Below, piece after piece: positions 37-62,077 of a stretch of 64,000 bases of DNA (its first letter is position 1; each line of letters opens with the position of its first letter). The stretch covers positions 141 through 64,140 of the forward strand of contig JABJMA010000019.1 in assembly GCA_018659605.1 (NCBI GenBank), read 5' to 3'. The notes beneath the pieces were generated by a model. The model was not told the DNA's origin. It made no database searches and saw only the letters and a list, made by a program, of their open reading frames with translations. The translations under genes were made by a program, and so were the position numbers. The stretch is from Rickettsiales bacterium (GTDB taxonomy: Bacteria; Pseudomonadota; Alphaproteobacteria; Rickettsiales; JABIRX01).

Positions 37-2679
37 TCAATTTAAAACTTCACGAACGACCCTTTGTAAAATTCCACCATTTTGATAATTTTGTAATTCA
101 ACATCAGTATCGATTTTAACGGTTAATTCTACATCTTGATTTTTGCCATCTATGGACTGAATATTAGCTGTAACTTTTGAGCCAACACCGATATTATTTA
201 AGCCCGAAATAGTAACTAATTCAGTTCCAGTTAATTTAAGTGTAAGCCTATTATCGTTTTTAAATATTAATGGAAGCACGCCCATACCGATTAAATTCGA
301 TCTATGAATTCGTTCAAAGCTCTCAGCAATTACAGCCTTAACTCCAAGTAAGCGGCTACCTTTTGCTGCCCAATCTCGTGATGATCCTGTTCCGTAATTT
401 TTACCGGCGAAAATAACCAAATCTTTGGCTAATGCTTGATAACTCATAGCTGCATCGTAAATTGGCATTTCGGTATTAGAACCGTTATTTTGGAATAATG
501 TTAATCCTCCTTCTACGCCACCCATCATTTCATTTTTGATTCGAACATTCGCAAAGGTACCACGCATCATTACTTCATGATTACCACGCCTTGAACCATA
601 AGAATTAAAATCTTTCGAATCAGTTCCTTCTCTTTCTAAATATAATGCAGCTGGTGAATCTTTGGCAATAGCTCCAGCAGGGGATATATGATCGGTGGTA
701 ATGTTGTCGCCAAATAAAGCTAATATCCGAGCATTTTTAATATCTCGATCTATTTTTTTATCTAAAGTGTCAAAGAAAGGTGGGTTTTGGATATAGGTGC
801 TAGTTTTATCAAATTCATAAGTTTCACTCGGAGTGAAGGTAATTTTCTGCCATTCCTCATCACCATCAAAAACTTCAGCATATTTGTTTGTGAACATTTC
901 TGGATTAATTGATTTACCGACATATTCAGCTATCTCACTATTAGAAGGCCAAAGATCTTTTAAATAAACATCATTACCATTCTGATCTTTTCCAAGAGAG
1001 GAGGTTGTAATATCAGATCTGGTATTACCCAAAATTGCATAGGCAACAACCAATGGAGGCGAGCCTAAATAACTAGCTTTAACAAGCGGATGAATTCTGC
1101 CTTCAAAATTTCTATTACCTGATAAAACTGATGATACAATTAATTGATTATCTTTAACAGATTGCTCAATTTCACTATCAAGAGGGCCAGAATTACCAAT
1201 ACAAGTGGTGCAACCATAACCCACAACATTAAAGCCTAATTGATTTAAATATGGCATTAATTCGGCTTTGTTTAAATATTCTGTAACTACTTGCGAACCA
1301 GGCGCGAGTGATGATTTTACAAAAGGTTTAAGTGTTAGGCCTTTCTCAATTGCTTTTTTAGCAAGCAGGCCTGCTGCAATCATAACATTGGGATTAGATG
1401 TGTTTGTACAAGATGTAATAGCAGCTATTACAATATCACCATGACGTAAAGTGTAATCTTGATCTTTAACGGAATATTTTGTATCTAGACCAACGTTAAA
1501 TTTTTGCGCAAAATCACTATTAACATTAGCTAGAGTTACTCGTTCTTGTGGTAATTTTGGCCCAGCTAAGCATGGCTCCACTGATGAAATATCAAAATCT
1601 AGCATTTCATCATAGGCTATTTGATCATTGCTATCACGCCAGAATTTCTGTTCTTTAAAATAAACTTCAGTTCGATCAATTATATCTACAGATCTGGCAG
1701 TTAATTTCATGTAATTAAGAGTTTCACGATCCACAGGAAAATAGGCCATAGTTGCACCAAATTCAGGCGACATATTGGAGATTGTAGCCCTATCAGCAAG
1801 CGGAAGATTACTTACAGCATCACCATAAAATTCAACAAATTTACCAACCACGCCATGTTTACGTAGTGTTTCACAAATAGTTAAAACAAGATCTGTTGCT
1901 GTTACGCCTTCATTTGCCTTTCCACTTAATTTAAAACCAACAACTTTCGGCACAACCAATGAGACTTCTTGCCCAAGCATTGCAGCTTCAGCTTCAATGC
2001 CACCAACTCCAAAGCCAAAGACGCCAATTCCATTAATCATAGTGGTATGAGAATCGGTTCCAACTAAACTATCCGGAAAAATCATTTTACCTAAAGCCGT
2101 ATCTTTAATATATGATACTTCAGCCAAATATTCTAAATTAACCTGATGACAAATTCCTGTTCCAGGAGGCACAGCTCGATAATTATCGAAAGCTGATTGG
2201 CCCCATTTTAAGAATTTATAACGTTCATTATTACGCTCTAACTCTTTTTTAATATTACCAGATAAAGCCGAACTTGTTTTGTAGAAATCAACTTGTACTG
2301 AATGATCAATAACTAAATCAACTTGGATGATAGGGTTGATATCATTTGGATTACCACCACCTTCTTTAAGAGCAGAACGCATAGAAGCCAAATCAACAAC
2401 TGCAGGCACCCCAGTGAAATCTTGCATTAAAACTCGCGCTGGGAAATAAGCTACTTCAACATTGTAAGTTTTAGCTAGATAATCTTTTATTCTGCTTTCT
2501 GCTTCAGCAGCATTATCTCTAAGTAACTCTGAGCGTAAGTAATTCTCAAATAATATCCTGATTGAATAGGGTAATTTCGTAATATCGCTATTAATTGATT
2601 TTAGGAAATTCTTCAGAGAGAAAAATTTATAGATTTTATCACCGATTGATAAATTCTGAATATATGGATTTTTAGTCAT
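37..2679 (-). CDS. acnA: Aconitate hydratase A (aconitase/IRP family)
   Basis: 880-aa ORF collinear with AcnA. Fe-S cluster Cys motifs ITSCTNTSNP and GCTTCIGNSG are present, plus the swivel-domain motif GTGSSRDWAAKG. Confidence 0.95.
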   Translation of the reverse strand: MTKNPYIQNLSIGDKIYKFFSLKNFLKSINSDITKLPYSIRILFENYLRSELLRDNAAEAESRIKDYLAKTYNVEVAYFPARVLMQDFTGVPAVVDLASMRSALKEGGGNPNDINPIIQVDLVIDHSVQVDFYKTSSALSGNIKKELERNNERYKFLKWGQSAFDNYRAVPPGTGICHQVNLEYLAEVSYIKDTALGKMIFPDSLVGTDSHTTMINGIGVFGFGVGGIEAEAAMLGQEVSLVVPKVVGFKLSGKANEGVTATDLVLTICETLRKHGVVGKFVEFYGDAVSNLPLADRATISNMSPEFGATMAYFPVDRETLNYMKLTARSVDIIDRTEVYFKEQKFWRDSNDQIAYDEMLDFDISSVEPCLAGPKLPQERVTLANVNSDFAQKFNVGLDTKYSVKDQDYTLRHGDIVIAAITSCTNTSNPNVMIAAGLLAKKAIEKGLTLKPFVKSSLAPGSQVVTEYLNKAELMPYLNQLGFNVVGYGCTTCIGNSGPLDSEIEQSVKDNQLIVSSVLSGNRNFEGRIHPLVKASYLGSPPLVVAYAILGNTRSDITTSSLGKDQNGNDVYLKDLWPSNSEIAEYVGKSINPEMFTNKYAEVFDGDEEWQKITFTPSETYEFDKTSTYIQNPPFFDTLDKKIDRDIKNARILALFGDNITTDHISPAGAIAKDSPAALYLEREGTDSKDFNSYGSRRGNHEVMMRGTFANVRIKNEMMGGVEGGLTLFQNNGSNTEMPIYDAAMSYQALAKDLVIFAGKNYGTGSSRDWAAKGSRLLGVKAVIAESFERIHRSNLIGMGVLPLIFKNDNRLTLKLTGTELVTISGLNNIGVGSKVTANIQSIDGKNQDVELTVKIDTDVELQNYQNGGILQRVVREVLN

Positions 2680-2741
2680 TTTAATCTAAAATATAAGGTC
2701 TAATAAGAAATTAATCATAAAATCATAATTAACAATCGATC

Positions 2742-3212
2742 TTATGTTTTTTCACATCTAATATGGCCCTCTGTTTCCTGTAATGAGTCTGCATCAGAAA
2801 ATTTTAGTTTTTTTCTATGATGCGAGCATATAGTGTTTGGAACTTGATCGGCATCACTACAGACCTCATTTATTCTTTGACAGAACTCTGCTAATCCTGG
2901 GATTGGATTACTGGTATTATTATTACATATTTGATTTCTGTAATCTGCTATCATTGCTTCAAATTGTGTTATACCATTAGCATTGCTTATAACGTCAGTA
3001 CCACAAATTTTTTGCAAATCTGCAAGGTCTATAAATGGAGATTTTGTTTCACAAGAGAAAATTATTTGCATTATTTTGCCACAACTCATTAAGGAATCAA
3101 AATCTTCTCTATCAGGACTTTTGACAACATTTTTGTTATAAGATTTATCGCTTGAGTCAAAGGCGGGAAAACTAATGCTTCGTGCTCTCGTATTTTTAAG
3201 GAACGGTCTCAT
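2742..3212 (-). CDS. Hypothetical Cys-rich protein
   Basis: 156-aa ORF with 9 Cys, no signal peptide, and no family recognised. Coding status is supported only by ORF length and its position in an intergenic slot. Confidence 0.35.
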   Translation of the reverse strand: MRPFLKNTRARSISFPAFDSSDKSYNKNVVKSPDREDFDSLMSCGKIMQIIFSCETKSPFIDLADLQKICGTDVISNANGITQFEAMIADYRNQICNNNTSNPIPGLAEFCQRINEVCSDADQVPNTICSHHRKKLKFSDADSLQETEGHIRCEKT

Positions 3213-3362
3213 TTTGCTAACTTAAAAGTTAAAATACATAGATGCAGTAAAAAAATAGATTACAGAATTGTCAATCTTTATTTTAAAGATAAGAAATGGT
3301 ATAAAAAGTTTATAAATAAACTTTTTTGCTTATTTATAACTGTAATTAGATCAGAATTCATT

Positions 3363-3977
3363 ATGCTTACAATTGAGAATATTTCATTATCATTAGACGA
3401 TAAAGTTATTATCAAAGAATTGTCATGTAGTTTTTTTCAATGCTCTGTCAGTTTGTTAGATGGAGCAAATAAAGTAGCAAATACTTTGTTACTGAAAACC
3501 TTAGCTGGATTGCATAAAGCTTACCAAGGTGATATTTTGGTTCAGCAAAATAATATTTTAGATAGTTTTGAAGCTTATAAAAATGATATTAACTATATTA
3601 GTAGCCGAGATGGTTTAAAACTTGGTTTGAGCGTGATGGATAATATTGAGCATTGGGCTAGTATTTATGAAACTGAGATTCTGATCAATACAGCTTTTCA
3701 TTTTTTTGAATTAGAAGAATTAGCTGATAGTAAAATTCAAGATTTAACAAAAGAGCAAAGACAGCGTGTTTCATTAACTCGCTTAATTCTAAAACCAACA
3801 CCAATCTGGTACCTAGATAATCCTTGCCTGCATTTGGAAGAGAAAATGAAAAAGAAATTTTGCAACATGATAGAGGTTAGGGCTAGGGAAGGTGGTATTA
3901 TTTTAATTAATAGCGAGAATAAAGACATCCCAGTCGTAAATAATAAGATTAATCTTTCAGATTTTGACCCAAAATGA
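3363..3977 (+). CDS. ccmA: CcmA-like ABC ATPase with degenerate nucleotide-binding motifs
   Basis: Collinear with heme-exporter CcmA and overlaps a CcmB-like ORF by ATGA. Walker A reads GANKVANT (canonical GPNGSGKT). The signature reads LTKEQ (LSAGQ). Walker B reads IWYLDNP (LDEP). Confidence 0.6.
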   Translation: MLTIENISLSLDDKVIIKELSCSFFQCSVSLLDGANKVANTLLLKTLAGLHKAYQGDILVQQNNILDSFEAYKNDINYISSRDGLKLGLSVMDNIEHWASIYETEILINTAFHFFELEELADSKIQDLTKEQRQRVSLTRLILKPTPIWYLDNPCLHLEEKMKKKFCNMIEVRAREGGIILINSENKDIPVVNNKINLSDFDPK

Positions 3978-4315
3978 TTTTTAAGATTTTAGCTTTTGAT
4001 ATAAAAGATTTTCGTAACCATCTTACTAAATGGGCTCAAAATCTTGGTGTTTTTATATTAGCAATTACCATATTATATTTTGGCTTTAATGATTTTATTG
4101 CGCCGAGTGCGATAGTGATAATTACCCTAGCAATGCTTTATATTAATAGCATCGATTTCATAAAAGATGATTTTCATAATGGAATCATAGATCAATATCT
4201 TATTGCTAATATCAAGCTGTACAGAATCATAATTGTTAAATCACTATTTTTACTATTGATAAATTTACCTATGATTTTGATATCGATATTGGTCTATTTA
4301 CCCTTCTTGACGTAA
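3974..4315 (+). CDS. ccmB: CcmB-like heme exporter membrane protein, N-terminal half only (truncated, possible relic)
   Basis: 113 aa matching about the first half of the roughly 220-aa CcmB, including the block FIKDDFHNGIIDQYLIANIKLYRIIIVK (compare F..D.edGsLEQL). Only 64 bp remain before the next gene, so the C-terminal TM helices are absent. Confidence 0.5.
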   Translation: MIFKILAFDIKDFRNHLTKWAQNLGVFILAITILYFGFNDFIAPSAIVIITLAMLYINSIDFIKDDFHNGIIDQYLIANIKLYRIIIVKSLFLLLINLPMILISILVYLPFLT

Positions 4316-10339: not shown

Positions 10340-10782
10340 ATAGTTATAGTTTTTACCAAATTTCAAAATCCCCATTAGATAAAATTCTACCATCATTGTT
10401 ATATAAAATTTATGCTCAATTGAAAAAACCCATGATGCTTTTAGTTGAAGATAGCGATGTGACAAAATATGATGCATTATTTTGGACATTTTCAACTAAT
10501 AAATTTTTGCCTCATGGCACTGAGGCTAATGATTCAGATTATTATAAATATCTATTAATTACATCTAAGAGCCAAAATATTAATAAATCCGAGATCTTAA
10601 TTGCTAAAGATGAAGTAAGCGAAGAATTCGCACAGAATTTTAAAAAAATCATCTATCTTTTTGATGATAACCATCCAAATCTTGCAAAATTCAAAGATAA
10701 ATACCAGCAAGAAAAACAAAACAAACCCAAAAATACGTTGTTCTGGCAACAAGATGAAAAAGGTAAATGGGCTAATAAATAA
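10336..10782 (+). CDS. holC: DNA polymerase III chi subunit
   Basis: N-terminus FYQIS...MMLLVED...YDALFWTFSTNKFLPHG matches the HolC pattern. The start overlaps the upstream stop. Confidence 0.7.
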   Translation: MNSYSFYQISKSPLDKILPSLLYKIYAQLKKPMMLLVEDSDVTKYDALFWTFSTNKFLPHGTEANDSDYYKYLLITSKSQNINKSEILIAKDEVSEEFAQNFKKIIYLFDDNHPNLAKFKDKYQQEKQNKPKNTLFWQQDEKGKWANK

Positions 10783-10787
10783 AGTCA

Positions 10788-10816
10788 TTAGGGTTGCCCC
10801 GTGTGTCCGACCCTAG
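10788..10816. repeat. Short GC-rich hairpin/inverted repeat just after the holC stop
   Basis: TTAGGGTTG-CCCCGTGTGTC-CGACCCTAG. The arms TAGGGT/ACCCTA pair. It may be a mini-member of the GC-rich element family or a terminator hairpin. Confidence 0.4.
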
Positions 10817-10834
10817 TTTATTATAAGATTTATT

Positions 10835-13800
10835 ATGCAAGCAACAAATCCTCATAATTCATTTTTTATTTCAGCCAATGCTGGGTCTGGTAAGACTAAG
10901 ATCTTAATTGATAGGATTACGGCTTTGATTTTATCTGGAGCTAAGCCGCAGGAGATTTTGGCAATTACTTTTACTAATAATGCAGCTGCTGAGATTAGGG
11001 CCAGAATTATTAAAAACATTATCAGTATTTTTATTTCCGATGATGAAACTCAAATCAAGTTGTTAACAGAGTTACTTGGTCATAAACCAGAAGATTTTCA
11101 TCTTAAGAATTTAGCTGATATTAAACAAGATATCTTAATTGGCTCAGCTAAGTTTAATATTCAAACCATTCATAGCTTCTCCCTAGAATTATTACGGAAT
11201 TATAGTTACGAAGCAGAGTTGCGTCCAGGATTTGCTGTAATGAGTGATGTAGATTCAAGCAAAATCATTGGTGATATTATTAGAAATACATACTCCAAGC
11301 CGGAACTTACGGAGAATTTTAATTATTTGGCATCACGTATTTCGTTAGAAGCAATATCAGAGAATCTAAAGCTTATAACTGATAAAAGAACAAATATCTT
11401 ATATTTACTATTTAAGGCAGGGAATTTAACGAATCAATTTGCTAATTTACGCAAGCTATTAGGGCTTCCTGAAATATTGCCAAATATCACTAATTTAAAA
11501 CGTGATTTTTTAATGCAGTCAGATTTGCAAGAGTTAATAAGAAATATAACAAATATTCATAGTGATCGATTGGGTAAGACTGATCAAGATAAGCTAAATA
11601 TACTCAAAGGTTTGAAATTTGATAATGATTTAACCATAAGGCAAAGTTTTGTTAAAATTAAAGATTTCTTTTGTACAAAACTAGGAACTCTTAGAGTTAA
11701 CTTCTTCTCAAAGAAAATATTTGATTTATTACCTGGTGTTGATCAGGAAATTGATATAATTGCACATGAATATCTTGAGTTGGCTGAATATTTAGCAAAA
11801 ATTGATGCATTTGAAATTAACAAGCGATTAATCGAAATAGCGGTATTATTACTAGATGAATATCGGCAGTTTAAGCAATCTCAAAATCTGTTAGATTATG
11901 AAGATATTCTATTAAAGGCATTAATTATTCTTAGCAGCAACAATAATCATAATATTAATTACCAGTTAAATTTAATTAAGCATATTTTAGTTGATGAGGC
12001 TCAGGACACATCAATTATTCAGTGGGAAATTATTGACTATCTTTATAATGATTTCCTGGCCGGTGGATTAAGTAAGACTGTTTTTATAGTGGGTGATGAG
12101 AAACAATCTATTTACGGATTTCAGGGCGCCAGGCACGAATTATTCAAACAAAAATATGATGAATTATCTAAAGGATTAGCACTATCTGGTGCTAAGCTTA
12201 TTAAATTAGACTTAGTTAAATCTTATCGAAGTAGCTCTGGTATAATAAACTTTGTAAACTTATTTTGTCAGAATGCTGCTATTAAAGATTCCTTAACACA
12301 GTTTAACATTGATCTAATTCATAATGCCCACCGGAATTCTAATTATTTATTTAAGTTATTACCATTTTGTAAAAAGGAATTCTCAAGGAGAAGCGAAAAG
12401 AAATTAGAGTTTCCAAAGTCTCCAATAGCCAAAGAGTCTAATTGTAACAAAGCTATAGAACAGATAATTTCTGAAATAACTAGATTAGTTACTGGTAATT
12501 ATTACTTAGAATCAACGAAAAGAAATGCTCGATATGAGGATATATTAATTTTATTTCCAAGACGAAATGAGTTCTTCTATGAGTTATATCAAGCATTAAA
12601 TGATCAGTCTATTGCTGTAAGTCTGGATGGTTTACGAGTTGTTGATAGAGATATTATATTTTTAGATTATTTGGCATTAATTAGATTTAGCTATATGCCT
12701 TGCGATGATTATAATTTAGCATGCTTACTTAAATCATCTTTATTTAATTTTGATGATCAGTTGTTGGAAAAGTTGTGTAGTTACTTAAATGACGATAATC
12801 TTTCAAAATCTTTATATGATATTATTGTCAATGAGATTTATGATTGGACTGCTGAAGCAAGCTCTGTGCTAAATGTCATTATTGATAAAAGTCGCTATTT
12901 ATCGCCCTATGATTTTTGTCTTAATCTTACTCATCATTTTGATTTATTTAACGCATATGATGATGAGTTTGCAGGTGATAGCAAAATACGCGTTGGTCAA
13001 ATTTTAGATTTAATTAAAGAGTTTGGGAATTGCTATGGGAGCTCATATCATGAGATTTATCAGGCTTTGATTCGACATGATTTGGCAATTAAAAATACCG
13101 GAGCTAGTAATAGTATCCGCCTTATGTCTATTCATGGTTCGAAAGGTCTAGAGGCGCCAATTGTGATCTTAGCAGATAGTAATAGCCGCGTAAGTTTAAA
13201 TAAGGATAAGCTTTATTTTACTGGCGATAATTTACTATTTACGACTGGTTCTTCTAGCTTTCCTGAGAAGACAGCTGCTATATCAGAGCATAATGAGCGA
13301 CTTGAGGCAGAATTTAGACGTCTAAATTATGTAGCTTTAACACGAGCTAAAGATGCTTTGATAATTGCAGGTAATGGAAGCTCAGTAATAGAAGGTAGTT
13401 TATATAATGTTATGGCCGAAGAATTGTCAAATAAGACAGATATCTCACTGATTGAGATTTATGATGAAGGGTATAAGGATTCAAACCTCGAGCAAAGAAC
13501 GCCTGTCGATAATTATGTAGAGATTCCCCCAGATCTCATAGAGACTCAAAGTAGAAAAATAGTAGCTAATAATATAGCTGAAGATTATCATAAGATATTA
13601 GGTATTATCATTCATAATATTTTAGATGATCTACAAATAATTAAAGTAGAAGATAGAAAGGATTTTATTAACTATCAACTTGATAAGCAAAGCGATCAGA
13701 TCCTAGAAGAGGATAAGGTAATTTTCAGAAGAGTGTTAATAGAAATTATCTCTGATCCACAATTTGAATACTTATTTGCAGCAAATAACCATGATGAGGT

Positions 13801-22016: not shown

Positions 22017-22664
22017 ATGAAATTCTTAATTATTATTATTATATTGTCGATATTAGCTTTTCTAGTAATATCATTGCCAACCGGCTCAGGATATTTTATT
22101 ATTTATGCTGCCTTATTACTTTATTTATTAGTACCGATTCTTACTCAGTCAAAAACAGAAATATTAAGGAAGTTCAGATATTTAGCGATATGGGGTGTGA
22201 TATTTATAACTGGCTTTATAGCTATTAGTTACAAAGATATTTTTCTAAATAATCGTATTGTAGCTAATTTAGTTCCGGGCAGGGCTGAATATAATCAGCA
22301 GGAAGTTATATTTTATGCAGCAAGTGATAATCATTTTTATGTTCATGCTTTGGTAAATAGGCATAAAATAGAGTTTTTACTAGATACTGGGGCTAGTGAT
22401 ATAATATTATCTAAAAAAGATGCGAGTATGCTTGGTTTTGACCTAGCTTCATTAAAATATAATAAAATTTATTATACAGCAAATGGAGCAGTTAGGGCTG
22501 CTTCCGTTACTTTAGATAAAATTATTATTGGTGATATGGTTTTTAATAATATTAGAGTTTCCATTAATGATGGAGATATGCATAAATCCTTACTTGGTAT
22601 GAGTTTTCTAAGGCTGTTTTCATCCTATAGATTTGAATCGGATAGAGTAACATTAGTTAAGTAA
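22017..22664 (+). CDS. Membrane-anchored retropepsin-like aspartic protease (TIGR02281/APRc type)
   Basis: Three N-terminal TM helices, then a retropepsin-like domain with the catalytic block LLDTGASDIILS. Confidence 0.75.
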   Translation: MKFLIIIIILSILAFLVISLPTGSGYFIIYAALLLYLLVPILTQSKTEILRKFRYLAIWGVIFITGFIAISYKDIFLNNRIVANLVPGRAEYNQQEVIFYAASDNHFYVHALVNRHKIEFLLDTGASDIILSKKDASMLGFDLASLKYNKIYYTANGAVRAASVTLDKIIIGDMVFNNIRVSINDGDMHKSLLGMSFLRLFSSYRFESDRVTLVK

Positions 22665-42389: not shown

Positions 42390-42532
42390 ATAATGTCAAT
42401 GATGTTGGTTGTCGGGCTACTGCTATATTACTGAGAAATAAGATTAATTTATTCGTAAATGAAAAAATAGATGTCTAAAACAATAAAGCATAGTATGGAG
42501 GAATATAACCCTTTTTGGTAATAGAGGTTGTA

Positions 42533-44953
42533 ATGAGACAAGGTCATAAAAGCGAAGAAAAAGTTGAGGATATTTTAATATCATTAAAAGATCCGAATTT
42601 AATAAGTTTTATAAATTCAGAATATGAGCAGCCTAGTAGTGTTTTTTTAAGATCCAAACAATTCAGCATAAAAGCAAAGAGTCATTTGATTGCTACTAGT
42701 ATTACAAAGTTAGAAGCATCGATTGATTATGCTCGTAAGCAATATAGCCTTACCAAGGATGGTGAAAAAAGCAGAGATATTAAAAAAAATATTATGACAC
42801 AATATTCATTAATATTTGTATTATTAGCGATTAATCACTCTATGTCATCTGATGGTGAGCAATTAAGCTTCCAAAATGAAATTATGATGGGGAAAGTGGT
42901 TGAAGAGTTAGGGCTACACCAAGAGAAAGATCATTTTGAGAATTCTTTAACCCGGGTGTTTCTGATTCATTTACCACGAATAGTTTATAAATTCAGCAGT
43001 GATATTGTTAATACTAACAGAGTATATCAGTTATTAAGTGGAGGAAATCAAGATATACATGGTCAAGAAGGTGCAAATGAAAACGTTCAATTTATCAAGA
43101 ATTTATTAGTGTATCTAAATGAGATAAATGTTAATGATTTTTTTCCTCATCAGCATCAGGATGAAGAAATTTTGGGTAATTATAATTTCAATCCATATGG
43201 TTGGGCTATTCAAGATATACCCACAAGCTTTATGACTGATAAGATAGAATATAGTTTACCTGGAATAGATGAATTCTGGATGAAAAATAATTATTCAAAT
43301 ATATCACAATATCTTGTGTTTTTATTAGGTGATATATTGTGTCAGCATCAGCATAATATTACATTTGAGATGTTATGCCTAAATCCTGGCTATCCTTACA
43401 CATTAAAAAATATGAATAAATTTGCGAATGATGAATTTCTTAAAAAGAAGGTTGATCTAATGCAGTTAGAACAGGGGCTGAACCAAAAAACAGGGATAGA
43501 GCAGGGCTTATCATCAATAAATACTCCTAAGAATCATATTTGGATTAAATCTGGTTTCGAAATGGAGATAGGCTTAGTAGATACTCCTGAGCCAAATAGC
43601 AATTTCGTCCAATTAGAGAGATGTAAGCAATTGATATGGGAGGAATTACATAATCTTAGAAAGGCACAATATGTGGATGCTGATGATAGTCAGGGCAGCT
43701 TAGAACAAGATAGTGAAGAGGATGTGAGGGAAGATGGGAAGTTTTTTGATATTAGTAATGATTTTCAAGGGCCGGCTAAAAGAAAACCGGCTTTTGATTT
43801 GTCTGATGCGGATAAAACAAGCTTTAAAAGGGTAAAATCGGGTGATATAGAGGTTTTAGACTTAGTAAGGACAAACTTTAATGCCCTGGCTAGAAGTGAG
43901 CATGCCCTATTGCATTTAATATTATGTAATGAGTTAGGTAAGAATATAGCTTTTATGGGAATACCAAGGGATAAGATGGTAACTACAATATTAAAGTATT
44001 TAGAACAAGGTGTATTTAGTCAAAACATTACTGATATTTATTATGCTTATGAAATAAATACTGATAAGCCTTGTGATTTACATGAAACAGTGGCATTAGC
44101 CCAAAATGTAGAACGGGCGATGAAAGAGTTTTATGCGCCAAATTTCGGTATTAAAATTGAACAAGCCCCATCATTTCAGCTTAACGTAAGTTTATGGACT
44201 TATGAGGATAGAGTTCAAAATAGTGGTGAAGTAAATACCTCTAAGTCGGTGTCATTATATAGTCAACAAATAGTGAAAGTTGATGGTAAAAATATTGAAA
44301 AACATCAGCTAAATTGTATTCAACATTATAAATTTTACACTCATCTACTTGACAGAGTGAATATTAAGCTCACGGATTTAATTATAGATATGTCAGGTAT
44401 ATTTCGTTGTTCGAAGATTGTTTGTCACATTGATTATAAGGTTTATGATGAGGATAAAAGTAATGATAGTAATTTTATATCTGATTCGCCACGTACTTAT
44501 ACGCGTCATAGGGTGGGTAGTGATTTTATATCTGATTCGCCAAGTACTTATACGCGTCATAGGAAGGATAGTGCTAGATCGGCAACGATTAGGGTTGTAG
44601 GAACAACAGTAGATGATTCAAGATTTGAGATAAGGTTATTTGGTCCAAACGTTCATATGGAAGCACAAATGCCAAATAAGGAAACATTTAATGAAAGCAC
44701 ACTCCTGCAATCAAACCAATTGGCAATTATTGCTGAGAAGTTATTAGAAGCTATAGATGAAATTAATAAGGAACATGTGTTTCAGCCAGCATCTCTAATA
44801 GACAAATCTAGTGACAAAGAAAATATATTTAATAGGAGTAGGGCATTATCTGGATCCTATCACACTAAAACGGTATGTTTTGAAGGTGATGATATGCAAT
44901 GGGTCGATAAGCATCAAGCTGGTACTGATAATTTCTTGCATAAATCCTTATAA
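42533..44953 (+). CDS. Giant two-domain protein, paralog A: unknown N-terminal domain plus a divergent GS/GCS2/amidoligase-like (carboxylate-amine ligase) C-terminal domain
   Basis: The long ORF is open from 42515. The ATG at 42533 is preceded by AGAGG. The motif series reads GFEMEIGLVD, AYEINTDKPC, APSFQLNVSLW, TYTRHR (twice), SATIRVVG and SRFEIRLFGPNVH. It is collinear with the ORF at 45143-47683. Confidence 0.8.
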   Translation: MRQGHKSEEKVEDILISLKDPNLISFINSEYEQPSSVFLRSKQFSIKAKSHLIATSITKLEASIDYARKQYSLTKDGEKSRDIKKNIMTQYSLIFVLLAINHSMSSDGEQLSFQNEIMMGKVVEELGLHQEKDHFENSLTRVFLIHLPRIVYKFSSDIVNTNRVYQLLSGGNQDIHGQEGANENVQFIKNLLVYLNEINVNDFFPHQHQDEEILGNYNFNPYGWAIQDIPTSFMTDKIEYSLPGIDEFWMKNNYSNISQYLVFLLGDILCQHQHNITFEMLCLNPGYPYTLKNMNKFANDEFLKKKVDLMQLEQGLNQKTGIEQGLSSINTPKNHIWIKSGFEMEIGLVDTPEPNSNFVQLERCKQLIWEELHNLRKAQYVDADDSQGSLEQDSEEDVREDGKFFDISNDFQGPAKRKPAFDLSDADKTSFKRVKSGDIEVLDLVRTNFNALARSEHALLHLILCNELGKNIAFMGIPRDKMVTTILKYLEQGVFSQNITDIYYAYEINTDKPCDLHETVALAQNVERAMKEFYAPNFGIKIEQAPSFQLNVSLWTYEDRVQNSGEVNTSKSVSLYSQQIVKVDGKNIEKHQLNCIQHYKFYTHLLDRVNIKLTDLIIDMSGIFRCSKIVCHIDYKVYDEDKSNDSNFISDSPRTYTRHRVGSDFISDSPSTYTRHRKDSARSATIRVVGTTVDDSRFEIRLFGPNVHMEAQMPNKETFNESTLLQSNQLAIIAEKLLEAIDEINKEHVFQPASLIDKSSDKENIFNRSRALSGSYHTKTVCFEGDDMQWVDKHQAGTDNFLHKSL
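44472..44573 (+). repeat. In-frame 51-bp tandem duplication (2 units) inside paralog A
   Basis: Positions 44472-44512 and 44523-44563 are identical at 40 of 41 positions. They encode (N/D)FISDSP(R/S)TYTRHR twice. Confidence 0.9.
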
Positions 44954-45142: not shown

Positions 45143-47683
45143 TTGCAAATTTTATGTGTTAAAGGGGATAAATTGAGCAGAAAAAATTCAAGAGAAGCGT
45201 CAGTATTAAACCGGATCATGCTACTTCCAGTGCCTCAGGAAGAGAAATTCTCTGATGAAGCAGGAACTCGTAGCAGTATGTCTGATGGATCTGGAGCTAC
45301 TAAATCTAGCATTGAGGCTATGGATGAGGCTCTAGAAGGGCTTTTGGCTAAATTGGATAGTTATGCTGGATTAGTCGATGAGCGCATCACGCAAGCGATG
45401 GCTTTGTTAGATGATATTGTTAGTAATCCCTCCTCAAGCCCTGCTACTACTAATGAACTAAAAAAGAATGATATTAAAAAGAATATCATGACATTTTATT
45501 CATTGAAATCTGTCTTGGAGGTCTTGTCAAACGGATTAAAACAGAGTGGAGCTAAATCCGTGGAGGAACTTTTTCCTAGTAAAGATGATATAGATACCCT
45601 TATTAGTGATTTTGGTAGTCACCCTAATCCAAATCATTTTGATAATTCTTTAACACGAGTATATTTGGTTCATTTGCCAAGGATAATAGATAGATTTCTA
45701 AAGGTATCTAACACTGAGGGCTTTACTCCTAAAAGAAATATTGCAGAAGTAATATTGTTGCGTAAGGATGAGGCTTTCAAGGATGAGGATGCTAAGGTTG
45801 ATAAGGGTGTGGATAAACAATTAGAGATTGAGGACAGCATTCAATTCGTTATGAATTTGTTAGTTTTACTCAATAGTATTAAAGTTAATAAATTTTATAA
45901 TCATGATAATACAGCAGATTGTTATCACTATGATTTTAATCCATATACAATATCTGAATTCACTGAGCGTCCAGCTGGATTTGTAACTGCACATGTTACA
46001 GACAATGATATAGCACAATTAGATGAGTTATGGATGAAGAATAATTATTCTAACATATCTCAATATATCACTTATTTACTATGTGATATATTACAAGTAG
46101 AGAATTTAAATTATCAGGATCCGAGAGCGGCATCGAAAGATGGAGTATCTGGCCAGGTAACAATAGAGGATTTATGTACAAATCCAGGCTATCCATATAC
46201 ATTAAAAGCATTAAATTTAGCAGCTATTAAGAAATTTGAAGAGCGTGAAGTTAATTTAGATGAGCTTGAGCAAAGGTTAGGAGTTGATCAAAAAGAAGAA
46301 GATGTACAAAGTGATGGCAGCTTATCAGTGCAAGATAATTCAGTGGGGGGAGTTAAGTCTGGAGGCGGAGGTAATACTGTTTTTCCAAATATTGACTCTT
46401 TAGTAATTGATGAGAAAGAGCAAGCGCAACCAGCGCCAAAAAATCAAATGGAGGTTAGGTCTGGCTTTGAGATAGAAGTTGGTATAATTGATGAGGTTAG
46501 TGAGTTAACAGTTGAGCAAAAAGAGAAATATGAAGATCTCCAGAGGTGTGTAAAGCGTGCTTTATTCAATAAAGCAACGAGCGAGATTTATAGGTTATCG
46601 GAGGATGCGCGAGATGAAATCGCAGAGAAATTAAAAAACTCATCTAGAAGCGAATTGATATTATTACATTTAATATTATGTAATGAATTAGGCGAAAATA
46701 TAGCCTTTATGGAGATGCCAAGAGAGAATATGGCTCAAAGAATAATAGGGCATTTAAGGGAAGGTAATTTAAAGCAGTCCATAACAGATCTTATTTATGC
46801 TTATGAGGTTAATATTGATAAACCATGTTCATTAAGTGAGACAATTAAAACTGCACAAGATGTTGAAAGTTTGCTAGTAGATTATTATGCACCAAATTTT
46901 GGTGTTAAAATTATTCAAGCCCCATCTTTTCAGTTGAATTTAAGTATGTGGGTTAAAGATAAGGATGGTAACTCAATAAATACGGCATGTCCAGCAAAGC
47001 AGTATACAGAGCTTGCTAATGGTAAAAAAACACTTCAATCTGTTAAATATACAGAATTCTATACCCATTTATTAGAAGAGGTAAATAAAGAGTTAACTAA
47101 ATTAATCACTGATGAGATTACAGGTATATTTCGTTGCTCCAAACTTGTCCCTCATATTGATTGGAAGGTTTACCCGCTAGAAGAGAGAAGATCTGGTACT
47201 GCACTCGCATCAGATGCAACTAGCTCATATACTAGGCATAGGCTTGATACAGGTAAATCAGCTTCTATTAGAGTCGTTGGTGGTGAAAGGAAGGATTCAA
47301 GATTTGAAATAAGGTTATTTGGTCCTAATGTTCATGCAGAAGCACAAATGCCTAATAAAGACACAATAAATGAAAATTTATTTAGGCAGTCAGACTTATT
47401 AGCTATTATAGCTGAGAGAGTTTTGATAGCTGTAGATAGGCTTAATTGTCGGGAAGTTTATGATGCCTCGGACTTATCCGTTGCTTGTAATGGGTTGTAT
47501 AAAAATTTTCAACGTGCTCGAGGTCTTTCTGGTTCAAGTTCTATTACAAATGGTTCTTTAATTTCTGGTTATACAGGTACTAGTGATTTCTTGGACTTTC
47601 CTCAGCTTGATGATTCTTTTTCTGATAAAGTTCAGTCAGCTGCGAATAAAGCTAGTCAATCTGATATATGTCGTGTCATGTAA
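45143..47683 (+). CDS. Giant two-domain protein, paralog B: unknown N-terminal domain plus a divergent GS/GCS2/amidoligase-like C-terminal domain
   Basis: It shares long identical blocks with paralog A (WMKNNYSNISQY, NPGYPYTLK, LLHLILCNELG, DSRFEIRLFGPNVH, AEAQMPNK). The start is uncertain: TTG 45143, TTG 45173 (after GGGGA) or ATG 45218. Confidence 0.8.
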   Translation: MQILCVKGDKLSRKNSREASVLNRIMLLPVPQEEKFSDEAGTRSSMSDGSGATKSSIEAMDEALEGLLAKLDSYAGLVDERITQAMALLDDIVSNPSSSPATTNELKKNDIKKNIMTFYSLKSVLEVLSNGLKQSGAKSVEELFPSKDDIDTLISDFGSHPNPNHFDNSLTRVYLVHLPRIIDRFLKVSNTEGFTPKRNIAEVILLRKDEAFKDEDAKVDKGVDKQLEIEDSIQFVMNLLVLLNSIKVNKFYNHDNTADCYHYDFNPYTISEFTERPAGFVTAHVTDNDIAQLDELWMKNNYSNISQYITYLLCDILQVENLNYQDPRAASKDGVSGQVTIEDLCTNPGYPYTLKALNLAAIKKFEEREVNLDELEQRLGVDQKEEDVQSDGSLSVQDNSVGGVKSGGGGNTVFPNIDSLVIDEKEQAQPAPKNQMEVRSGFEIEVGIIDEVSELTVEQKEKYEDLQRCVKRALFNKATSEIYRLSEDARDEIAEKLKNSSRSELILLHLILCNELGENIAFMEMPRENMAQRIIGHLREGNLKQSITDLIYAYEVNIDKPCSLSETIKTAQDVESLLVDYYAPNFGVKIIQAPSFQLNLSMWVKDKDGNSINTACPAKQYTELANGKKTLQSVKYTEFYTHLLEEVNKELTKLITDEITGIFRCSKLVPHIDWKVYPLEERRSGTALASDATSSYTRHRLDTGKSASIRVVGGERKDSRFEIRLFGPNVHAEAQMPNKDTINENLFRQSDLLAIIAERVLIAVDRLNCREVYDASDLSVACNGLYKNFQRARGLSGSSSITNGSLISGYTGTSDFLDFPQLDDSFSDKVQSAANKASQSDICRVM

Positions 47684-52859: not shown

Positions 52860-53630
52860 ATGAAAAAATTATTATTACTAACATCTTCTACACTTGCAAT
52901 ATCTGCATTTACAGTTTCAGCTAATGCAGCAGGTGTATCAGATTTATTCTTTAAACCAGTTACAGGTCAGATAGTATCAACTACTACTTATGATCTAAAT
53001 ACTTACACAGAGACTGATAGTGTTGAAACAGATGGAACGACTACTACGGAAACTATAGATTACGGTCTTAGTGATAAAAATACTTTATCACTAACAGTTT
53101 CATATGGTGATACAGATAATAATACATCTTCTACTAATAATAATAATCAAAATGGTTTTTACAATCCAGAAATTGCTTTGAGTCGTAGAATTGCTACTGG
53201 TGATGTAATTGTAGATTTAAATGCTTCTATAGCACCTGATTTAATTGATACTGATGATTCAGACTATGCTACTGATGCTACAGAATATAGCTTTGGTTTG
53301 GCTGTTAGTGGTACAAGAGGTATTGCTAAATATACTTTATCAGCAGATATGAAACAAATTGCCTCTGGTTCAGATGGTTCTGGAGCTTATTCAGCAGCTG
53401 TATTTACTATAGATAATCAATTTGTCATAACCGATCAAATACGTTTAGATCCTAGTATTTCTTATACTGATGCTGATGGTACTGATACAAATTATGTTAC
53501 TTATGGAGCTACATTAAGCTATGATGTTAGTGATTCATTAGCCATATATGCTGGTGTACGTAATATCAATTATGATACTTTAAACAAAGAGACAACTACT
53601 ACTACATTATCTCTAAAAACATTATTCTAA
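52860..53630 (+). CDS. Outer-membrane beta-barrel protein (Thr/Asp/Ser-rich)
   Basis: Signal peptide ...TVSANA/AG, alternating amphipathic strands, and a terminal Phe (LSLKTLF). Confidence 0.65.
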   Translation: MKKLLLLTSSTLAISAFTVSANAAGVSDLFFKPVTGQIVSTTTYDLNTYTETDSVETDGTTTTETIDYGLSDKNTLSLTVSYGDTDNNTSSTNNNNQNGFYNPEIALSRRIATGDVIVDLNASIAPDLIDTDDSDYATDATEYSFGLAVSGTRGIAKYTLSADMKQIASGSDGSGAYSAAVFTIDNQFVITDQIRLDPSISYTDADGTDTNYVTYGATLSYDVSDSLAIYAGVRNINYDTLNKETTTTTLSLKTLF

Positions 53631-59766: not shown

Positions 59767-59795
59767 TTGACACACATGTTTTTCGAGGCGATAAT
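59767..59795 (+). promoter_or_regulatory. Candidate sigma-70 promoter for the cyclophilin gene
   Basis: TTGACA, a 17-nt spacer, then GATAAT, about 90 bp upstream of the ATG at 59882. Confidence 0.4.
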
Positions 59796-59881
59796 CGTCA
59801 CTAATATTGTATCAGGGGAGCATGTCTTAGATGATGAGCAAATCCTAGTAATATATAGTAACTAACAAATAGGATATAAAA

Positions 59882-60397
59882 ATGGCAATACGAGTTTATT
59901 TTGACATGAACGCTGGTGGCGAAGAGCTAGGCAGAATTATTATGGAATTACGTGACGATATAGTTCCAAAAACAGCAGAAAATTTTAGAGCATTATGCAC
60001 TAATGAAAAGGGCTTTGGATTCAAAGGAAGCTCATTCCATCGAGTGATTCCTGACTTTATGTGTCAAGGCGGTGATTTCACTAACCATAATGGTACAGGT
60101 GGAAAATCAATTTATGGCGATAAATTTGAAGATGAGAATTTTGAACTAAAACATACAGGTCCTGGAATATTAAGTATGGCTAACGCAGGTCCTAATACAA
60201 ACGGATCGCAGTTTTTCATCTGCACCTCTGAAACAGCTTGGTTAGATGGCAAGCATGTTGTGTTTGGAAAAGTTGTAGACGGCATGGATGTTGTTAAAAA
60301 AGTAGAATCTTACGGTTCTCAAAGTGGACAAACATCTGTCAACATCACTATCTCTGATAGTGGAGAGATCGCTGATAGCGGAGAGATTGCTGCATAA
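59882..60397 (+). CDS. Cyclophilin-type peptidyl-prolyl isomerase, eukaryotic CypA-like
   Basis: Collinear with human cyclophilin A with long identical runs ([76 protein letters not shown]). It is unlike bacterial PpiA/PpiB. Confidence 0.92.
60356..60391 (+). repeat. 18-bp in-frame tandem duplication at the cyclophilin C-terminus
   Basis: GATAGTGGAGAGATCGCT / GATAGCGGAGAGATTGCT. The two differences are both synonymous. It encodes DSGEIA twice. Confidence 0.9.
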
Positions 60398-60415
60398 GAA
60401 CCGGGGACGGTTTTT
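60398..60415. terminator. Weak hairpin between the convergent cyclophilin and gloA genes
   Basis: AACCG-GGGA-CGGTT followed by TTTTT on the + strand. The stem is short, so confidence is low. Confidence 0.3.
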
Positions 60416-60417
60416 AA

Positions 60418-60810
60418 TTACTTTTCAATAAGCTCTATTTTATAGCCGTCGGGGTCTTCTACGAAGGCGATAACTGTAGAGCTATGCTTCATTGGTCCTG
60501 GGGGGCGAGTGATATTTGCGCCTGATGCTTTTAATAAATCGCAGGCGGCGTAAATGTCTGGTACTCCGAGTGCCATATGGCCAAAGCCATTTCCCAAATC
60601 ATACGCTGCATCTTGTTCCCAGTTATGGGTTAATTCAATAACTGTATTATTTGATTCATCGCCATAACCAACAAAGGCCAGAGTAAACTTGCCATTTGGG
60701 TAGTCTTTTTGACGCAGTAATTTCATACCAAGAAGGTTGGTATAAAAATCTAATGATTTCTGTAAATCATAGACCCGAATCATAGTATGTAGCATTTTAA
60801 ATTGTGCCAT
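60418..60810 (-). CDS. gloA: Lactoylglutathione lyase (glyoxalase I)
   Basis: Collinear with GloA (LHTMIRV.DL..S..FY...LGM.LL, TLAFVGYG, IELTHNW, GNGFGHMALGV, PGPMKH, AFVEDPDGYKIELIE). Confidence 0.9.
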   Translation of the reverse strand: MAQFKMLHTMIRVYDLQKSLDFYTNLLGMKLLRQKDYPNGKFTLAFVGYGDESNNTVIELTHNWEQDAAYDLGNGFGHMALGVPDIYAACDLLKASGANITRPPGPMKHSSTVIAFVEDPDGYKIELIEK

Positions 60811-60851
60811 AATATCTCTTGGTGTAAAAGGTTAGGGGTGATCTAAATATT

Positions 60852-61127
60852 TTATATATTCTCGTCGGTAGGCTCGGTAGCTACTGTAGTTTGCTTTGAA
60901 TCTTTTACCTTTATTTTTTTACCTTCGAAAACAGATCCATGCAGTGCCTTTATTGCAGCATTGGCATCATCATCATTGGACATCTTAATAAAAGCAAAGC
61001 CTTTGGATATACGGCGCTTTTTATCAAAAACTATATCGCATGTTTGTACGGTGCCATAAGCTTTAAATAACGCAGAGAGATCTTGTTCTGTGGTCCAGCG
61101 AGATAGGTTGAGTATATTTATAATCAT
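60852..61127 (-). CDS. RRM-type RNA-binding protein
   Basis: RNP2-like INILNL and RNP1 KGFAFIKM in a 91-aa protein. Confidence 0.75.
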   Translation of the reverse strand: MIINILNLSRWTTEQDLSALFKAYGTVQTCDIVFDKKRRISKGFAFIKMSNDDDANAAIKALHGSVFEGKKIKVKDSKQTTVATEPTDENI

Positions 61128-61315
61128 TAGAATTGCTTAAGATGTTTTTATATTTTGTGTATTAAATACCATTTTCGTCATTATGCCAGAACAAGTAATA
61201 AAGCATAGTAAAAGATATGGGGCAGCTCTTAATGATATTTTCTTTACTACAAAATAGTTCATTGTTAAGTATTGAGATAGGAGCCTTTATCTACAAAATT
61301 TGAATTCTTATTAAG

Positions 61316-62077
61316 ATGATAAACCTATTTAACAAAGCTATATTTAGCTTAGGCATTACCATAATGTTATTTGCGGCATCAAAGTCTATAGCTAGCTCTG
61401 ACTCCCATACCCCAGTGCTTAAGTTGCGATTTCATTTAGTACAAGATTTAGAGATGCAGCAAAAAGGCGTTGATATGGTTAATTGGATTACGCCTGAAAT
61501 GATAAGAGATACCGTGATGCCGGATCTTAATAAGATTTGGTCAGATGCAGAGATTAGATGGGAATTAGCAGGGGTTCATAATGCAAGTACTAAAAGCGCG
61601 GGGCGTCAAGAAACGGTCGATTATCTCTTGCGGGCTAGACGTAATGAGCAGGGAAAATCTGATCCAGAGCGGATTAAAAAGTTAAAAAACATCTTACCTT
61701 TAGCGGCAAGGGACCCAAATATAATTAACATATATGTTATTCCATATTTAGGAATAACTTCTCAAGGCAATGCTTCTCCTAGACAAAATATTGTAATCAT
61801 GGGGCAATGGAGTGATAAAAGTTCTCGTGGGCAATCTCCTCCTCAAAAATGTATTTTATCTCAAAATGGAGCGCCAAAAAAAGGTTCCTTTAGTAGAACT
61901 ACAGCCCATGAATTAGGCCATATTCTTGGCTTGCGGCATCCAAAAAAATCAAATAAAACAAGATCTCAAAATCTTTTGATGGGTGGTGGCTCATCGGTGC
62001 CAGGTGTAAATTTAACTAATGCGGAAATATTGATTGCACGAGAAGGTGCTTTCCTATTAGAATACGCTCAACGTTAA
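61316..62077 (+). CDS. Secreted metzincin-like zinc metalloprotease
   Basis: Signal peptide and the extended zinc motif HELGHILGLRH (HExxHxxGxxH). Confidence 0.6.
   Translation: MINLFNKAIFSLGITIMLFAASKSIASSDSHTPVLKLRFHLVQDLEMQQKGVDMVNWITPEMIRDTVMPDLNKIWSDAEIRWELAGVHNASTKSAGRQETVDYLLRARRNEQGKSDPERIKKLKNILPLAARDPNIINIYVIPYLGITSQGNASPRQNIVIMGQWSDKSSRGQSPPQKCILSQNGAPKKGSFSRTTAHELGHILGLRHPKKSNKTRSQNLLMGGGSSVPGVNLTNAEILIAREGAFLLEYAQR

Follow-up and report, generated by a model that had tools for sequence, protein, structure and literature searches.

A eukaryote-type cyclophilin gene on a chromosomal contig of an uncultured marine alphaproteobacterium

Relation to described cyclophilins

Eukaryote-type cyclophilins are already known from Actinobacteria, at a much lower similarity than in the case described here (PMC3913756). 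PpiA of Mycobacterium tuberculosis clusters with eukaryotic cyclophilins, binds cyclosporin and is 46-48% similar to the closest human cyclophilins. Horizontal transfer of its gene was discussed and left open, its N-terminal sequence is used for secretion, and the protein was proposed to act on host proteins (PMC3913756). Another type, the AquaCyps, is specific to marine Alphaproteobacteria. These proteins have ~290-300 amino acids (aa), a conserved disulfide, and N- and C-terminal extensions which, with 40-50 residues inserted between strands 4 and 5, make up the NIC domain (PMC4898713). We describe here a single-domain cyclophilin encoded on a 64-kb stretch of DNA (64,000 nucleotides; contig JABJMA010000019.1, positions 141 to 64,140, assembly GCA_018659605.1), referred to below as the window. 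The window comes from an uncultured marine alphaproteobacterium that bears the label 'Rickettsiales bacterium'. All sequence criteria tested assign the protein to the eukaryotic CypA-type subfamily. It is probably a cytoplasmic peptidyl-prolyl isomerase (PPIase) of the CypA/CypD type, acquired horizontally long ago, from either a eukaryote or another bacterium, and kept by selection.

The window cyclophilin matches the Pfam family Pro_isomerase (PF00160) with an E-value of 6.5e-49 (166.7 bits against a cut-off of 21.7; profile positions 2-156 of 159). Its top PDB matches are human mitochondrial CypD (288 bits) and CypA (270 bits), both gapless over residues 5-163. With human CypA (hCypA; reference sequence identical to PDB 1ak4_A) it shares 117 of 159 residues (74%), including uninterrupted runs of 27 and 12 aa, and loop lengths are of the CypA type, with no gap over the 159 residues in comparison with either hCypA or CypD. 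E. coli PpiB (taken from MG1655) shows 33% identity and 17 gap positions. Scores against the NCBIfam equivalog profiles fall below the cut-offs for both PpiA (NF008151, 61.3 bits against 308) and PpiB (NF008057, 53.1 against 297). A previous reading of the DNA made without database searches (the sequence-only reading) had recognised a eukaryote-type cyclophilin A in a bacterial genome, with two long identical runs and loops unlike those of E. coli PpiA and PpiB. All of this is borne out by the comparison, and the identity to hCypA, estimated there at about two thirds, turns out to be higher. No record was found when the exact sequence of the protein was looked up.

All 12 catalytic or cyclosporin A (CsA) contact residues that were checked are identical to those of hCypA. 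Window R54, F59, M60, Q62, A100 and N101 correspond to hCypA R55, F60, M61, Q63, A101 and N102; window A102, Q110, F112, W120, L121 and H125 correspond to A103, Q111, F113, W121, L122 and H126. According to literature quoted in PMC9659587, Trp121 is the determinant of CsA sensitivity, and E. coli PpiB has a Phe instead of this CsA-binding Trp. Since the Trp121 equivalent is kept, the window cyclophilin is predicted to bind CsA and to be sensitive to it. The enzyme would act on the bacterium's own proteins as they fold, accelerating the cis-trans isomerisation of their Xaa-Pro bonds.

The window cyclophilin belongs to the same length class as human CypA (PPIA, hCyp18) and CypD (PPIF). It differs from them by its location on a bacterial chromosome behind a promoter-like site, by a Ser in place of Cys161, by an 8-aa C-terminal tail and by lacking the mitochondrial presequence of CypD. 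Compared with M. tuberculosis PpiA, it is much closer to hCypA and is devoid of the secretion N-terminus. Although the AquaCyps are also found in marine Alphaproteobacteria, the window cyclophilin has neither their extensions nor their disulfide and, at 171 aa, carries no insertion relative to hCypA. With PpiB and PpiA of E. coli, as with CypA and CypB of Brucella, it shares the Pfam family and the general reaction. Its bacterial counterparts outside the clade are uncharacterised cyclophilins of Planctomycetota, Verrucomicrobiota, Myxococcota, Acidobacteriota and other bacteria, which are 73-84% identical to it, belong to the same subfamily and are annotated 'peptidylprolyl isomerase'. A literature search found no description of the 73-84% identical group in Planctomycetota and Verrucomicrobiota. 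The window protein adds an alphaproteobacterial example to these bacterial cyclophilins almost indistinguishable from the human enzyme, and such bacterial proteins are predicted to bind cyclosporin-class drugs.

The contig carries tig-clpP-clpX-lon, acnA, an addA of alphaproteobacterial type, recQ, gdh, lysine-degradation genes and 4 tRNAs. This housekeeping content identifies it as chromosomal DNA. ClpX is 87-91% identical to metagenomic relatives, and its best named matches (67-69%) are from Holosporales, Rickettsiales, Rhodospirillales and other Alphaproteobacteria. Among genomes, the nearest is a metagenome-assembled genome (MAG) with the label 'Rickettsiales bacterium SI075_bin151'. The window itself corresponds to a 64,054-bp metagenome contig (JGI 3300072015), so that an assembly chimera or eukaryotic contamination has to be considered. 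However, the orthologue of the sister species was recovered with its adjacent genes in separate assemblies, made from several samples by different pipelines (NCBI MAG, ENA, JGI). Moreover, the window gene is intronless and host-like in composition, it is accompanied by a bacterial promoter-like site, a Shine-Dalgarno-like motif and a terminator-like hairpin (Table 1), and bacterial genes flank it tightly on both sides. The probability of such an artefact is negligible, and the locus is a genuine segment of a bacterial chromosome.

Distribution of the subfamily and candidate donors

A pattern-based scan of one genome per GTDB species recovered at least 415 loci, of which the best 80 were listed. 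These are 73-92% identical to the window protein, or 73-84% if the sister MAG (L001) is set aside. Planctomycetota and Verrucomicrobiota account for most of the labels, and several of the loci lie on complete or Mb-scale chromosomes. The remainder includes Myxococcota, Acidobacteriota, Binatia, a spirochaete, a cyanobacterium and a methanogen. The sister MAG is the only one among the best 80 of the 415 loci to carry an alphaproteobacterial label. The eukaryote-type enzyme is therefore common in bacteria, and its similarity to the human protein provides no evidence of a recent transfer from host to symbiont. The window cyclophilin is real, intact and under selection, but it is not demonstrably host-derived and it is not unusual among bacteria.

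This distribution, together with 74-84% identity across phyla and domains against 33% to an ordinary proteobacterial cyclophilin, makes horizontal acquisition by this small alphaproteobacterial clade well supported. The gain would date to the common ancestor of this clade of uncultured marine bacteria, in which at least three lineages carry the gene. The opposite view is that an ancient bacterial cyclophilin was inherited vertically, or that eukaryotic CypA/CypD derives from an alphaproteobacterial (mitochondrial) gene retained here. It could draw on the fact that the best PDB match is mitochondrial CypD and that the host is an alphaproteobacterium. However, the contrast between 74-75% identity to the human proteins and the low identity to PpiB is difficult to reconcile with it, as is the isolation of the sister MAG as the only alphaproteobacterium labelled among the 80 listed loci. 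Within eukaryotes, CypD and CypA are paralogues, and the slightly higher score of CypD therefore reflects slower change rather than ancestry. We regard vertical inheritance as very improbable.

Horizontal acquisition being the preferred explanation, both eukaryotes and other bacteria have to be considered as donors. Outside the clade, the best matches in protein databases reach 84% (sequences on 39-70-kb contigs), followed at 82-83% by sequences of a dinoflagellate, a fish, a tick and a chytrid. The closest labelled bacteria are Verrucomicrobiales at 84%, a virtual tie with the eukaryotes. Neighbour-joining trees were built from 160 aligned sites with a simple distance correction, using 200 and 300 bootstraps. 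No sister group is supported beyond the clade formed by the window cyclophilin and its two orthologues. When only labelled sequences were retained (300 bootstraps), the replicates divided into 38% with a purely bacterial sister of the clade, 37% with a purely eukaryotic one and 25% with a mixed one.

A transfer from another bacterium, for instance a marine verrucomicrobium or planctomycete, would imply that a leader was lost or never present. The best matches outside the clade are consistent with this (Verrucomicrobiales L002 at 84% and L003 at 81%; P0011 and P0013 at 84%, on 39-53-kb contigs). So are the breadth of the subfamily, which includes complete Planctomycetota chromosomes among its at least 415 species representatives, and the existence of leaderless bacterial versions (e.g. 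L044, L049 and L053, 164 aa). In addition, a bacterial sequence is the nearest one in 58% of bootstrap resamples. Against it, a purely bacterial sister appears in little more than a third of the replicates, the margin of identity over eukaryotes is 1-2 percentage points, and comparison of the tails found no C-terminal tail or indel in common with any bacterial group. A bacterial donor is quite possible, though short of probable.

The alternative is a direct transfer from a eukaryote, such as a protist host or prey, independent of the copies in Planctomycetota and Verrucomicrobiota. The window protein has no leader. It combines a short N-terminus, M-x-[IV]-[RK]-x-[FY]-F-D, with the motif ELRDD, a combination that occurs in eukaryotic or probably eukaryotic sequences from a fish (P0052), EukProt (P0100) and a marine transcriptome (P0098), and in none of 78 other bacterial sequences. 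This signature points weakly to eukaryotes and conflicts with overall identity. The eukaryote set is also nearer on average (mean distance 0.235, against 0.278 for the bacterial set), the neighbour-joining point estimate places the clade beside marine eukaryote transcriptome sequences, and an ankyrin-repeat protein at a related locus (L092, see below) hints at a eukaryote-associated lifestyle. However, that grouping has 1.5% bootstrap support, with a eukaryotic sister in a similar minority of replicates as a bacterial one, and Verrucomicrobiales provide the nearest individual sequences from outside the clade. Column-wise log-odds between bacteria and eukaryotes place the protein between the two groups, leaning to bacteria (+8 to +28 bits). 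The eukaryote sample is biased to the best matches of the query, and a signature of two characters could arise by homoplasy. A direct transfer from a eukaryote to this lineage is not well supported; it is a possibility slightly less likely than a bacterial donor.

The 160 alignable residues cannot tell whether the immediate donor was a eukaryote or a bacterium. At a deeper level, the subfamily most likely reached bacteria from eukaryotes originally. The inter-domain transfer proposed in the sequence-only reading may thus stand for the ultimate origin of the subfamily; for this particular gene the two kinds of donor are tied. That reading had further called the protein host-derived and its bearer host-associated, and nothing in the window shows either. 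It had also named observations that would speak against a transfer, and some of these were made: silent sites and codons are host-like, the related lineages accessible to examination have orthologues, and the subfamily is broad in Planctomycetota and Verrucomicrobiota.

Age, expression signals and C-terminal tail

Orthologues of the same length (171 aa) exist in the sister MAG L001, at 92% identity, and in a third lineage, P0008, at 88%. Bootstrap support for grouping the three in one clade is 99%. Pairwise synonymous divergence (dS) among them is 0.30-0.50, with ratios of nonsynonymous to synonymous divergence (dN/dS) of 0.09-0.21, and of 0.09-0.13 when the window gene is compared with its two orthologues. 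The cyclophilin is under purifying selection.

The G+C content (GC) of the gene is 0.391, against 0.340 +/- 0.033 for 56 window genes, the excess residing at codon positions 1 and 2. GC at third positions (GC3) is 0.279 compared with 0.252 +/- 0.040 (z about +0.7), and the leave-one-out synonymous-codon score is unremarkable (z -0.39, rank 22 of 57). Silent-site composition and codon usage are those typical of the host, hence the gene is not recent: both have fully converged on the host and the acquisition is old. The stretch 59882-62077, which had been thought richer in GC than the rest of the window, does reach 0.378 against 0.337 +/- 0.022 for segments of the same size (top 1.4%), though richer segments exist. 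Of the 57 genes, gloA and the metzincin-like gene depart most from the host in synonymous codon usage (z -1.8 and -1.7), and the GC3 of gloA (0.359) is the highest in the window. Their atypical codons, and the lack of both at the sister locus, make these two genes stronger candidates than the cyclophilin for a recent gain.

A sigma-70-type promoter-like site precedes the gene (Table 1), in agreement with the near-consensus promoter noted in the sequence-only reading. Matches at 11 or more of the 12 positions occur at only 3 places in the window, both strands counted, and this site is one of them. The predicted 5' untranslated region (UTR) is about 80 nt long. Both hexamers are conserved in the sister species L001 (the -10 being AATAAT there), together with most of the spacer and much of the ~80-nt leader, while further upstream the two sequences cannot be aligned. 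This pattern supports a real promoter that belongs to the gene and would drive its transcription. The 5' UTR was examined as a possible regulatory RNA: Rfam returned nothing for it, and its predicted folding does not surpass that of shuffled sequences (z 0.11). The terminator-like hairpin was the only one found, where 1.3 are expected in shuffled sequences.

The last strand residues of the protein are repeated (DSGEIA occurs twice) as a result of a short in-frame duplication (Table 1), which creates the tail of 8 aa past the end of eukaryotic CypA. The tail is kept in diverged form by all three members of the clade (...NSGEIAATKEIAA and ...NCGEISESGEVSA). At the other end, no signal peptide was detected: the N-terminus aligns directly with CypA strand 1 and the maximum 12-residue hydropathy of the N-terminal region is 0.48 (segments starting at residues 1-30). 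Many homologues from Planctomycetota and Verrucomicrobiota carry N-terminal leaders of 25-60 aa, often hydrophobic and Arg-rich, which by eye are probable export signals. The window cyclophilin differs from these by being leaderless, and by its own C-terminal tail. It is predicted to reside in the cytoplasm.

A host-mimicking secreted effector would be a different matter: the protein might leave the cell, for example by type IV export through the acidic C-terminal tail, and act on proteins of a eukaryotic host. Its near-identity to host-type cyclophilins and the clade-specific tail would fit such a role, for which the secreted eukaryote-type cyclophilin of M. tuberculosis offers a precedent (PMC3913756). 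Relatives also encode ankyrin-repeat and large coiled-coil proteins. However, besides the missing signal peptide, no secretion-system genes occur within the 64-kb window, and nothing in the window indicates a host-associated lifestyle. The neighbourhood is of a housekeeping or stress-related kind (gloA, RRM protein, pterin dehydratase), and homologues in free-living Planctomycetota show that bacteria use the enzyme independently of any host. An effector role is improbable, and the action on host proteins suggested in the sequence-only reading finds no support. A more elaborate version, in which a protist-associated alphaproteobacterium captured the cytosolic cyclophilin of its host and delivers the mimic back, the duplicated acidic tail being an export or targeting signal, is a speculation with little chance of being correct.

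Gene turnover around the cyclophilin and other window genes

The order cyclophilin - RRM gene - HTH gene is common to the window and the sister species, whereas the genes between these anchors all differ. They are gloA and the metzincin-like gene in the window, and genes for a zeta-toxin, VF530, AhpC and YdjM in the sister. The flanks beyond SulP likewise differ between the two. The cyclophilin has thus persisted in a region where gene content changes rapidly. After the transfer, it would have been kept under purifying selection while the neighbouring genes turned over, a clean case of a transferred gene maintained with its own promoter amid the turnover of its neighbours.

The conserved RRM gene raised the possibility that it forms with the cyclophilin gene a split version of PPIE/Cyp33, an RRM-cyclophilin fusion. 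This was rejected: the RRM gene lies on the opposite strand and gloA is located between the two. In the PDB the RRM protein is most similar to generic eukaryotic RRMs (PABP, Sxl, Hu) and to an RRM protein of the bacterium A. baumannii; PPIE is absent among the 60 PDB matches listed for it.

A metagenome scan with the HTH anchor gene returned 2 loci only, a repeat of the sister species and a new one from a more distant relative, L092, whose HTH anchor is 68% identical. This locus encodes a 1008-aa coiled-coil protein (1165-4191, minus strand) and an ankyrin-repeat protein (10592-11194, plus strand), which hint that the wider group may be eukaryote-associated.

Several observations weigh against the preferred reading. 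The cyclophilin lies in a stretch among the top 1.4% of segments of its size for GC, both neighbours have the least host-like codons, and the region takes up foreign DNA. L092 shows no cyclophilin within 10 kb of its HTH anchor, an observation limited to that stretch. The absence of other Alphaproteobacteria is a statement about the best 80 of 415 loci, from a pattern-based scan that can miss variants. Finally, the trees were obtained by neighbour-joining with a simple distance on 160 sites, and a better model might recover some signal on the donor.

Table 1. Features of the window (positions are those of the 64-kb stretch)
Feature	Position	Strand	Description
Sigma-70-type promoter-like site	59767..59795	+	TTGACA-17 nt-GATAAT; 11/12 positions match
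Shine-Dalgarno-like motif	59871..59874	+	AGGA, 7 nt before ATG; block conserved in L001 as AGGG
Cyclophilin gene	59882..60397	+	171 aa plus stop, ATG start; single-domain, eukaryote-type (CypA/CypD-like) peptidyl-prolyl isomerase
In-frame 18-bp tandem duplication	60356-60373 and 60374-60391	+	16/18 identical; 3' end of cyclophilin gene
Terminator-like hairpin followed by T-run	60395..60416	+	between convergent cyclophilin gene and gloA; consensus match only
gloA	60418-60810	-	convergent with cyclophilin gene
RRM gene	60852-61127	-	91-aa single-RRM protein; conserved near cyclophilin gene in both species, 75% identity
Metzincin-like gene	61316-62077	+	253 aa; HELGHILGLRH (HExxHxxGxxH) zinc-binding motif; hydrophobic signal-peptide-like N-terminal stretch
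Gene-turnover zone	about 56.2-63.7 kb		compared with L084 1-10300; anchors: cyclophilin gene, RRM gene, 109-aa HTH gene
Tandem paralogues	42515-44953 and 45143-47683	+	812 and 846 aa; directly downstream of tRNA-Val and tRNA-Asp
Thr/Asp/Asn-rich protein gene	52860-53630	+	256 aa; signal-peptide-like hydrophobic N-terminus
Aspartyl protease-domain gene	22017-22664	+	215 aa; PF13975

The metzincin-like protein gave only weak, sub-threshold Pfam matches (Reprolysin_5 and Peptidase_M10). Its sequence suggests a divergent secreted metzincin-like protease.

Further away from the cyclophilin, the two tandem paralogues are 36% identical to each other and have no match in Pfam or NCBIfam; they may represent large proteins peculiar to the lineage, or effectors. 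The Thr/Asp/Asn-rich protein shows a weak match to the beta-barrel of TonB receptors, and its gene has the lowest GC3 of the window (0.089). The domain of the 215-aa protein is an aspartyl protease domain of retroviral type (gag-polyprotein-like), matched with an E-value of 6e-24.

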